Assembly: GCA_018715585.1 (NCBI GenBank)
Contig: DVLH01000021.1
Location: 1-31,293 of the forward strand
Direction of reading: 5' to 3'
Origin: Candidatus Aphodomonas merdavium
Lineage (GTDB): Bacteria; Bacillota; Clostridia; Christensenellales; Aristaeellaceae
Length of the DNA: 31,293 nt
In this document: positions 2,838 to 5,289 of the stretch, piece by piece
Layout: the number at the start of each line of letters is the position of its first letter
Position numbering within the stretch: the first letter of the stretch is position 1
Program-made: the position numbers and the translations under genes
The notes under the pieces: generated by a model
Seen by the model: only the letters and a program-made list of their open reading frames with translations
Told to the model about the DNA's origin: nothing
Databases searched by the model: none

Positions 2838-3029
2838 ATGGGCAAATACTGTCAGATTTGCGGAAAGGGCCTTATGAACGGCAACAACGTCAGCCATTCC
2901 GTGCGGCGTACGCATCGCCGCTGGGCTCCGAACACGCAGCGCGTGCGCGTTGTTGTGGAAGGTTCCGTTTGTCATATGAACGTATGCACCCGTTGCCTGC
3001 GCAGCGGCAAGGTGCAGCGCGCTCAGTAA
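2838..3029 (+). CDS. rpmB: 50S ribosomal protein L28 (zinc-binding C+ form), 63 aa
   Basis: CQICGK...GNNVSHS.RRT.RRW.PN...[11 protein letters not shown]; GGAGG RBS. Confidence 0.98.
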
Positions 3030-3100: not shown

Positions 3101-3104
3101 ACGC

Positions 3105-3128
3105 AAAAAAGCCCCGCTCCGGCGGGGT
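3105..3128 (-). terminator. Intrinsic terminator after the SpoVM-like ORF
   Basis: Minus strand CCCCGC-CGGA-GCGGGG-C then TTTTTT, about 10 nt after the stop at 3139; short T run on the plus side too. Confidence 0.75.
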
Positions 3129-3138
3129 CTTTTCTGCC

Positions 3139-3219
3139 TCAGCGCTTTCTGCGCGCCAATATCCTCAGTAGGCCGCGCAAGCCGCGCGGTGCGCGCAAGC
3201 AGATCATCCGTACTTTCAC
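3139..3219 (-). CDS. spoVM: SpoVM-like spore morphogenetic peptide, 26 aa (MKVRMICLRAPRGLRGLLRILARRKR); absent from the ORF track
   Basis: RBS GAGGAGGTGA 4 nt before GTG; PRGLRGLLR aligns with SpoVM PKFLGGIVR; same length as B. subtilis SpoVM; convergent with rpmB as in B. subtilis; own terminator. Confidence 0.75.
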   Translation of the reverse strand: MKVRMICLRAPRGLRGLLRILARRKR

Positions 3220-3255
3220 CGGCTCACCTCCTCGCGCCTTTTTGCAAGCTGCGCC

Positions 3256-3456
3256 CTACGACGCCCGGCAGACCAGGTAGCCCAGCAGGATGAGCAGCGC
3301 GCCCAAAAGCGCTAGGAAAAAGCCAAACACAAAGCTGAAAAAAATCAGCGCCACGCCCGCAACGATCAGCCCGATGCCCAGCCTGCTGGCCGGGTAGAGC
3401 CGCTCCTGCGCCGGGCCGCTGCGGCAGTTGCCGCAACCTCGCTTCCATCCGTCCAT
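3256..3456 (-). CDS. Small membrane protein, 66 aa, N-terminal CxxC and long hydrophobic C-terminal segment (likely two helices)
   Basis: GAGGTG RBS 6 nt before ATG at 3456 (track start 3465 lies inside the RBS); CGNCR then LGIGLIVAGVALIFFSFVFGFFLALLGALLILLGYLV. Confidence 0.7.
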   Translation of the reverse strand: MDGWKRGCGNCRSGPAQERLYPASRLGIGLIVAGVALIFFSFVFGFFLALLGALLILLGYLVCRAS

Positions 3457-3484
3457 GCGGACCACCTCGTTGCAGAATATGACG

Positions 3485-3522
3485 AAAGCCCCGCGGAAAG
3501 AACGGGGCTTTTTTTGTTTTTT
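3485..3522. terminator. Terminator-like hairpin between the CoA-disulfide reductase gene and the small membrane gene
   Basis: AAAGCCCCG-9 nt-CGGGGCTTT; long T run on the plus side, only TTT on the minus side. Confidence 0.6.
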
Positions 3523-3609
3523 CGCCGTGCCAGGCGAAAGCGCGAAGGCACGTCCATTTTTTGCGCCTGCAGCGCCGTGCGGTCGTTTTTTGTCGCAGCG
3601 CCGCGCCGC

Positions 3610-5289
3610 CTATCGGCACAATCCGCAGCCGCCCACCGCGCTTTGCGCCGCAAACGCGCCGTGGCTGTAAAACCCATATCCACCGGCAACGTTATAGCAA
3701 GCGATCCCGTTTTGCATGAGGATGCGGCAGGCCAGATAGCTGCGCAGCCCGCTTTGGCAATAGACGTAAAACGTCTTCCCCTGGGGCAGTTCGGATAAGC
3801 GCTGCCTCAGCTCGTCCAGCGGCAGGTGCAGCGCGCCCGGGATATGGCCGCTGCGGTATTCCCCGTCCGTGCGCGTATCCAGCAGCACAGTCCCTTCCGG
3901 CGGGCACAGCGCCTGCCGCCAGTGCACCTGGCGCACCTTGCCCGTCAGCAGGTTCTCGATGATAAACCCCGCCATGTTCACGGGATCCTTGGCGGAAGAA
4001 TACGGCGGCGCGTACGCCAGCTCCAGCTCCGCCAAGTCCATGCCCGTCATGCCCGCGCGGATGGCGGCAGACAGCACGTCCACGCGCTTGTCCACCCCTT
4101 CGCCGCCAACGGCCTGTGCGCCCAGGATGCGCCCGGACGGCTTTTCAAACACGACCTTCAGCGTCATGTTGGCCGCGCCGGGATAATACGTGGCATGGGA
4201 CGGCGGGCTTAAAAGCGCATAGTCGCACGCAATGCCGGCCTCCTGCGCCTGGCGGGCCGTCAAGCCCGTTCCGCCCACCGTCATGGTAAAGACCTTGAGC
4301 ACGTTTGACCCCTGCGATCCCCTGTATTCGCTGGCGATGCCGCAAATGTTGTCGGCAGCAATGCGCCCTTGCTTGTTGGCCGGCCCTGCCAGCGCGATCA
4401 GCGCCGGCTGCCCCGTCACCAGGTGGCTCACCTCCACCGCATCGCCCACCGCATAGATGTCCGGGTCGCTCGTGCGCATGTGCGCATCCGTGCGGATGGC
4501 GCCGCGCAACCCCAGCGCAAGCCCCGCCTCCTTCGCCAGCGCGCTTTCCGGCGCAACCCCGGCGGCTAAAATGACAAAATCGGAAACGATGGGCGTATCG
4601 TCCTGGATAAACGTGGCGATACGGCCCTCGCGCCTTTCAAACCCCGTCGCCGCCGTGTTCAGGCGCAGCGTGACGCCATGCCTGCGCAGCTGCTCATGCA
4701 CGAGCGCGGCCATGTCCCCATCGAGCGTGGGGAGCACCTGATCCGTCAGCTGAACAACCGTCACGTCCAACCCCCGGTTGCGCAGGTTTTCCGCCATTTC
4801 CAAGCCGATAAAACCGCCGCCGATCACCGTCGCCGTCCGCGGCGCTTTTTCGTCCACGAAACGGCGGATGCGCAGCGTATCTTCTACCGTGCGCAGCGTA
4901 AAGAGCAGCGGCCCTTCCACCCCGGGCAGCGGCGGCACAATCGGCCGTGCTCCCGGCGCAAGGATCAGCTTGTCGTACGCCTGGGTATAGAGCGTTCCAT
5001 CCTCCAGGCGGCGCACCTGCACCGTCTTGGCTTTGCGGTCAATGCGCACGGCTTCCTGGCGGATGCGCACATCGATGGCGAAGCGGCTCTGCAGGCTTTC
5101 CGGCGTCTGCACGGTCAGCTTCTCGGCCTCCTTGATCTCCCCGCCGATATAATACGGCAGGCCGCAGTTGGCATAGGAAACATAGCCGCTGCGCTCGAGC
5201 ATGATGATTTCCGCCTTCTCGTCCAGCCTGCGCAGCCGTGCCGCAGCGCTCGCACCGCCCGCAACGCCGCCAACAATGACAACTTTCAT
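3610..5289 (-). CDS. CoA-disulfide reductase family FAD oxidoreductase with C-terminal rhodanese domain, 559 aa
   Basis: GGVAGGASAA FAD motif, SYANCGLPYY redox Cys, GGGFIGLE NAD motif, LAYAPPYS, rhodanese YCQSGLRS; AAGGAGG RBS. Confidence 0.93.
   Translation of the reverse strand: MKVVIVGGVAGGASAAARLRRLDEKAEIIMLERSGYVSYANCGLPYYIGGEIKEAEKLTVQTPESLQSRFAIDVRIRQEAVRIDRKAKTVQVRRLEDGTLYTQAYDKLILAPGARPIVPPLPGVEGPLLFTLRTVEDTLRIRRFVDEKAPRTATVIGGGFIGLEMAENLRNRGLDVTVVQLTDQVLPTLDGDMAALVHEQLRRHGVTLRLNTAATGFERREGRIATFIQDDTPIVSDFVILAAGVAPESALAKEAGLALGLRGAIRTDAHMRTSDPDIYAVGDAVEVSHLVTGQPALIALAGPANKQGRIAADNICGIASEYRGSQGSNVLKVFTMTVGGTGLTARQAQEAGIACDYALLSPPSHATYYPGAANMTLKVVFEKPSGRILGAQAVGGEGVDKRVDVLSAAIRAGMTGMDLAELELAYAPPYSSAKDPVNMAGFIIENLLTGKVRQVHWRQALCPPEGTVLLDTRTDGEYRSGHIPGALHLPLDELRQRLSELPQGKTFYVYCQSGLRSYLACRILMQNGIACYNVAGGYGFYSHGAFAAQSAVGGCGLCR

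Follow-up and report, generated by a model that had tools for sequence, protein, structure and literature searches.

SpoVM, an amphipathic peptide, holds SpoIVA to the surface of the forespore and is a textbook case of membrane recognition by curvature. C. difficile can almost do without it, and the anchoring of the coat in clostridia is poorly understood. The closest described system is the spoVM operon of C. difficile, in which spoVM is cotranscribed downstream of CD25622, the gene for a 50-aa protein, under sigE (Ribis, Ravichandran, Putnam, Pishdadian and Shen, mSphere 2017, PMC5607322). An insertion in CD25622 that is polar on spoVM causes the same mild defect as an insertion in spoVM itself, CD25622 was described as "primarily conserved among the Peptostreptococcaceae" and apparently unique there, and the proximity of spoVM to rpmB was noted to be conserved (PMC5607322). 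Among the papers searched, we found no further mention of CD25622 besides this 2017 study.

We have analyzed a locus of the same kind in a stretch of 31,293 nucleotides from Candidatus Aphodomonas merdavium, the whole of which is called the window here. An earlier examination of the letters alone (the sequence-only reading) had proposed a bicistron that pairs SpoVM with a small membrane protein, and this proposal is borne out by the synteny of the two genes, by a conserved CATAnnnT element and by co-occurrence with SpoIVA. The pairing upstream of spoVM had been reported once, in C. difficile; what is new here is its much wider conservation. We consider it highly probable that positions 3481 to 3102 of the minus strand constitute a sporulation operon of two tiny genes with a mother-cell-type promoter, in which a gene for a 66-aa integral membrane protein, assigned to the CD25622 family, would be followed by one for a diverged SpoVM. 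The features of the locus are collected in Table 1.

Table 1. Features of the small operon and its neighbours in the window, with the C. difficile locus for comparison (last line)
Feature	Position	Strand	Remarks
CoA-disulfide reductase/rhodanese gene, end of	5289-3610	-	upstream neighbour of the small operon
Spacer, reductase gene to 66-aa ORF	153 nt	-	
GC-rich hairpin	3485-3511 (stem 3511-3502 / 3494-3485, loop 3501-3495)	-	between reductase gene and small operon
-35-equivalent position	3496-3502	-	reads TTCTTTC; poor match
Putative -10 element CATATTCT, sigE/sigK type (CATAnnnT)	3474-3481	-	
RBS GAGGTGG of the 66-aa gene	3462-3468	-	5 nt before ATG
Gene for 66-aa predicted small membrane protein, assigned to CD25622 family	3256-3456 (ATG 3456, TAG 3256)	-	E 5.4e-23 against family profile
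Gap, 66-aa stop to spoVM-like start	36 nt	-	
RBS AGGAGGTG of spoVM	3225-3232	-	
Predicted diverged spoVM, 26 aa, GTG start, MKVRMICLRAPRGLRGLLRILARRKR	3139-3219	-	conserved downstream of small gene; profile-profile match
Predicted intrinsic terminator of the bicistron, bidirectional, common to rpmB	3102-3127	-	-25 kcal/mol, z -3.4; strong terminator at 3127-3112, past spoVM
rpmB (ribosomal protein L28), convergent	2838-3029	+	Pfam 1.1e-21; TIGR00009 76.4 bits
C. difficile locus L112	CD25622 1924-2076; spoVM 1808-1888; then rpmB		

The arrangement of the two ORFs agrees with what had been read from the letters. The 66-aa ORF was said to have a ribosome-binding site of its own, which is the GAGGTGG at 3468-3462; its stop was placed 36 nt ahead of the spoVM-like start, and the coordinates agree; and no terminator had been seen between the two, where a terminator scan of the gap likewise found no terminator-like site. 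Upstream of the operon, the region 3470-3540 folds at -26.2 kcal/mol (z -3.75), and the hairpin at 3511-3485 overlaps the -35 position and has a weak U-tract in the minus direction. On the plus strand (3485-3530) a long T-run (TTTTTTTGTTTTTT) comes after this hairpin, which makes a strong terminator there, much better than in the minus direction, and the T-run of the rpmB terminator is weak (CTTTTCTG). Given this weak T-run and the strong plus-strand terminator, any read-through past rpmB would be antisense to spoVM and the 66-aa gene and would end at 3485-3530. Within the 66-aa coding region, at 3334-3364 of the minus strand, two further terminator-like hairpins with T-runs lie among Phe-rich codons and are probably a by-product of codon content.

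A single-sequence search with the 66-aa protein returned two clusters only, its own and that of a protein 65% identical to it. When the protein and 35 relatives were scanned against Pfam and NCBIfam, assorted membrane families came up, all below threshold, and the clusters retrieved from the ESM Atlas were all unnamed ones from Bacillota. When 60 related genomes were scanned, strong matches were confined to two congeners; the family was uncovered by reading the weaker genome matches by eye, where an ORF of 60-70 aa recurs with the same build and a good RBS each time, and then by building profiles (A1, A2). Profile searches found the small gene as a single copy in 119 of the 201 genomes of the organism's own taxonomic family, and likewise one copy per genome in 80/301 genomes of the order, 52/399 of the class and 71/401 of the phylum. 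Among 1.84 billion representatives the small-protein family accounts for 383 clusters, with lengths of 41-131 aa in all 150 of the matches listed from these 383. The named relatives are all labelled "hypothetical protein" (Oscillospiraceae, Eubacteriales, Candidatus Excrementavichristensenella, Caloramator and Fonticella); the gene is generally annotated in this way or left uncalled, and it has no Pfam or NCBIfam family. The sequence CGAGGTGGTCCG at the RBS of the small gene is kept in three congeners. A chance frame in GC-rich DNA was considered for the 66-aa ORF and rejected because the ORF is conserved, occurs once per genome and keeps its RBS; on these grounds it is judged to be a real gene.

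The window protein consists of a basic N-terminal tail of 25 aa followed by ~38 uninterrupted hydrophobic residues. The family consensus has a basic tail, usually with one Cys and often with C-Y-P, then ~18 hydrophobic residues, the motif P-x-W-x-W, a second hydrophobic segment of ~19 residues in which glycines are conserved, and basic residues at the end; the Pro-Trp motif is lost in the window's genus. An N-in/C-in helical hairpin would fit a hydrophobic run of ~40 residues better than a single helix, and is preferred because of the central Pro-Trp motif and the basic residues at both ends. AlphaFold2 modelled the window protein as one long helix (residues 25-65, mean pLDDT 77) and a typical family member likewise as one continuous helix. 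Since the expected hairpin is absent from the models of these two family members, the predicted topology follows from sequence logic only. The sequence-only reading had described a CGNC and a long hydrophobic hairpin: the CGNC is present at residues 8-11 and the hydrophobic stretch is there, but the hairpin was not reproduced by AlphaFold2. As a separate observation, 33 of the 36 aligned members (alignment A6) have a single Cys in the N-terminal tail and 10 of the 36 have one among their six C-terminal residues; given the hairpin, the two would share one side of the membrane.

The C. difficile locus was retrieved via the tail of primer 2149 from the supplement of Ribis 2017; primer 2148 of the same study matched none of the collected genomes exactly, since the reference strains carry a different sequence at that site. 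Against a profile of 42 members that included the window protein and left out CD25622, CD25622 scored 30.9 bits (E 8.6e-12). Direct comparison of the two proteins by BLASTP gave a weak match that is in register (31% over 32 aa, E 0.017). CD25622 resembles the window protein in being tiny and in having a basic N-terminal part before two hydrophobic halves, which in CD25622 meet at P-x-W-x-W (LPGWIW). Its gene, too, is the one immediately ahead of spoVM, shares the strand of spoVM and converges with rpmB. A CATAAACT element stands upstream of it, within the 77-bp fragment that complemented the mutant. The window protein differs in its length of 66 aa, in its CGNC/YP-containing tail and in the loss of the central Pro-Trp (SFVFGFF). 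By profile score, build and position, the window gene is assigned to the CD25622 family, and this family is, on the evidence of the profile searches, far wider than published: CD25622 was reported for the Peptostreptococcaceae, whereas the family found here extends across the whole GTDB phylum. The small membrane protein, which had earlier been called uncharacterised, is not wholly so: its homologue CD25622 was already known to be cotranscribed with spoVM under sigE.

The Pfam SpoV model (PF08183) does not match the spoVM of the window. This miss is uninformative because the SpoVM of C. difficile, which has been studied experimentally, fails the same model (13.5 bits against a cut-off of 20.6). 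One syntenic SpoVM-like copy (L058) passes Pfam at 33.9 bits. Aligned by hhalign with canonical SpoVMs including that of C. difficile, the peptides of the family and of the Oscillospiraceae type gave a probability of 96.2% (E 2.5e-9), and the single invariant proline (Pro11) is in register between the SpoVM-like peptides and the canonical ones. The window ORF shares with SpoVM the length of 26 aa, the invariant Pro, a basic amphipathic tail and the rpmB neighbour, and differs in a Cys7 and in Arg-rich replacements (ICLRAPRGLRG versus IKLPKFLGG). Judged by this profile match, the 26-aa ORF is a diverged SpoVM. Most clostridial SpoVMs are missed by PF08183.

The association of the two genes was followed across genomes at the best-scoring loci, which are not a random sample: a SpoVM-like ORF lies 4-77 nt downstream of the small gene in 29 of the 30 family loci, usually convergent with rpmB, and SpoVM follows in at least 18 of 27 loci from other families of the order (with rpmB directly next in 6 and other contexts in 3), in 13 of 29 loci of the class (rpmB directly next in ~10, tandem paralogues elsewhere in 6) and in 17 of 23 loci of the phylum, rpmB being convergent in most cases at these levels too. 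The full order rsgA-rpe-small gene-spoVM-rpmB is seen in one relative, an arrangement that corresponds to the spoVM neighbourhood of B. subtilis. A survey of spoVM neighbourhoods across Clostridia had been suggested as a check on the bicistron, and the pairing does recur at family, order, class and phylum level.

These same loci bear on whether the two proteins work together. The small protein may be a sporulation protein in its own right, which has its promoter and locus in common with spoVM but does not act together with SpoVM, serving for example in membrane or cortex events around the forespore; we regard this as a real possibility that falls somewhat short of an even chance. It is favoured by the loci at which the small gene stands beside rpmB without SpoVM, six at the order level (L055, L061, L064, L070, L071 and L076) and ~10 at the class level, and by one class-level family (L099, L100, L102, L104, L107 and L108) in which two tandem paralogues of the small gene lie away from spoVM and rpmB. 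Furthermore, five SpoIVA-positive genomes that are 96-100% complete (G011, G225, G393, G258 and G373) keep the small gene beside rpmB, and SpoVM was found nowhere in them with a 24-position profile, although such a profile can miss diverged copies. Since SpoIVA-positive genomes retain the gene without a detectable SpoVM, the role of the small protein cannot depend strictly on SpoVM. On the other hand, adjacency to spoVM with gaps of 4-36 nt is kept across the whole phylum, which would be unusual for unrelated functions. A direct functional partnership of the small protein with SpoVM is a tentative proposal and on balance doubtful; in C. difficile the phenotype did not go further than that of spoVM, and no separate role was seen (PMC5607322).

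The promoter supplies evidence for the two-gene sporulation operon. The sequence-only reading had placed CATATTCT upstream of the 66-aa ORF at 3480-3473; the element is present there, one base off, at 3481-3474. CATANNNT has 23 matches in the window against 19.4 expected and TGNCGAA has 20 against 20.8, so that both are at chance frequency and the mere presence of either motif means nothing. It is the comparison across genomes that rescues CATAnnnT and dismisses the 0A box. CATAnnnT lies 17-27 nt ahead of the start codon at 28 of 30 family loci, compared with 26 of 492 control ORFs (5.3%) in the same DNA, and its distance from the RBS is fixed across the family loci. Its variable bases differ among congeners (ATT, GGC, CCC) while CATA and T are kept. 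The leader, which would be only ~10-12 nt in the window, is short throughout the family; this and the poor -35 had both been raised earlier as caveats, and both are real features of the locus.

Promoters for sigE and sigK share the same -10 and differ in the -35, which has ATA for the former and AC for the latter (Saujet 2013, PMC3789822). When the family promoters were aligned on CATA, an upstream consensus GCATAtt appeared at -21 to -15, 14 nt before CATAnnnT; the family thus resembles the sigE promoters of B. subtilis and C. difficile in having CATAnnnT at -10 and a -35 that contains ATA. The window's genus departs from them, with TTCTTT(C/T) at this place: the ATA is lacking in the window (TTCTTTC, 3502-3496), and the congeners G002 and G003 read TTCTTTT. 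Six relatives have AC 16-17 nt upstream, which is the sigK pattern. A sigE promoter was preferred to a sigK promoter, given the ATA in the aligned consensus and the sigE dependence of the homologue in C. difficile. Outside the window's family (L055-L079, L082-L101) the presumed -10 is often CGTAnnnT(A), for example CGTATGATA, or GAATAnnnT, variants that may reflect lineage-specific preferences of sigE/sigK.

The distribution of the small gene follows that of SpoIVA. Among the family genomes, 111 have both, 75 have neither, 8 have the small gene only (these include the organism's own incomplete genome and three weak matches) and 7 have SpoIVA only; the relatedness of the genomes inflates any test on these counts, but there are whole genera without both genes. 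Neither SpoIVA nor a true Spo0A was found in the organism's own assembly (83.8% complete), whereas all three congeners carry both; the assembly does contain sigE, a second sporulation-type sigma factor, SpoIIID and SpoVAC/SpoVAEB. A Spo0A-like paralogue was the only such protein found in this genome (G000, 155 bits).

Transcription was examined in gut RNA libraries. Two of them yielded contigs, of 270 nt (3134-3403) and 230 nt (3190-3419), that bridge both genes, and in neither library does a contig lie on the stretch that separates the 66-aa ORF from the reductase gene. One of the two has a short, mostly unmatched piece on the reductase gene (3717-3753), and a third library has a contig over rpmB alone. 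The contigs, which are unstranded and shallow and may include DNA, are consistent with a separate bicistronic RNA and fall short of proof because of their lack of strand and depth. The pair could otherwise be transcribed mainly by read-through from the CoA-disulfide reductase operon, with no sporulation specificity in this organism, as the weak U-tract of hairpin 3511-3485 in the minus direction and the poor -35 of this genome would allow. We think this very unlikely: the upstream neighbour varies by genus (rpe-rsgA, hydrolases and others) and yet the CATAnnnT promoter stays, several relatives have terminators ahead of it, and the RNA contigs end short of the reductase gene. Expression of the small gene that is specific to sporulation and to the mother cell is very probable.

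A last alternative, that the N-terminal CGNC marks a redox-active or metal-binding membrane protein controlled by Spo0A, is scarcely credible and is largely refuted by comparison of the sequences because neither motif is conserved: the CxxC (CGNC/CANC) is shared by the three congeners and by another family of the order but is found in only 4 of the 36 aligned members, though the single N-terminal Cys is common, and the TGACGAA that overlaps the -10 element has a counterpart in 2 of 30 family loci and in neither of two congeners. The latter motif does lie at 3480-3486 of the plus strand, as had been read, and the accompanying warning that so short a match can be chance was well placed; of the two motifs whose conservation in orthologous promoters was to be checked, CATAnnnT is conserved and the 0A box is not. 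Both the Spo0A box and the CxxC look like chance, and the CxxC, which had been put forward as a feature of the membrane protein, is not a property of its family.

For the sporulation operon of two tiny genes, a working picture can be offered. The small protein would form a tight N-in/C-in helical hairpin, would sit in the mother-cell-derived outer membrane of the forespore, and may act at the same stage as SpoVM. A more ambitious version is that the CD25622-like protein belongs to the sporulation core of the clostridial lineages as an ancient membrane protein present throughout the phylum, which tethers the SpoIVA basement layer to the forespore membrane together with SpoVM and replaces SpoVM in those SpoIVA-positive lineages where its gene stands beside rpmB and SpoVM is undetectable; we consider this version unlikely.

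The range published for CD25622 is much too small. Genome surveys for sporulation genes count too few copies of the CD25622 family and of spoVM alike, the latter where they rely on Pfam, because PF08183 misses most of the clostridial copies. Across hundreds of genera the spoVM operon has retained a second tiny gene, which, within the organism's family, is lost together with SpoIVA. This retention in the operon and the joint loss make the small gene an obvious, and overlooked, candidate for a role in anchoring the spore coat.
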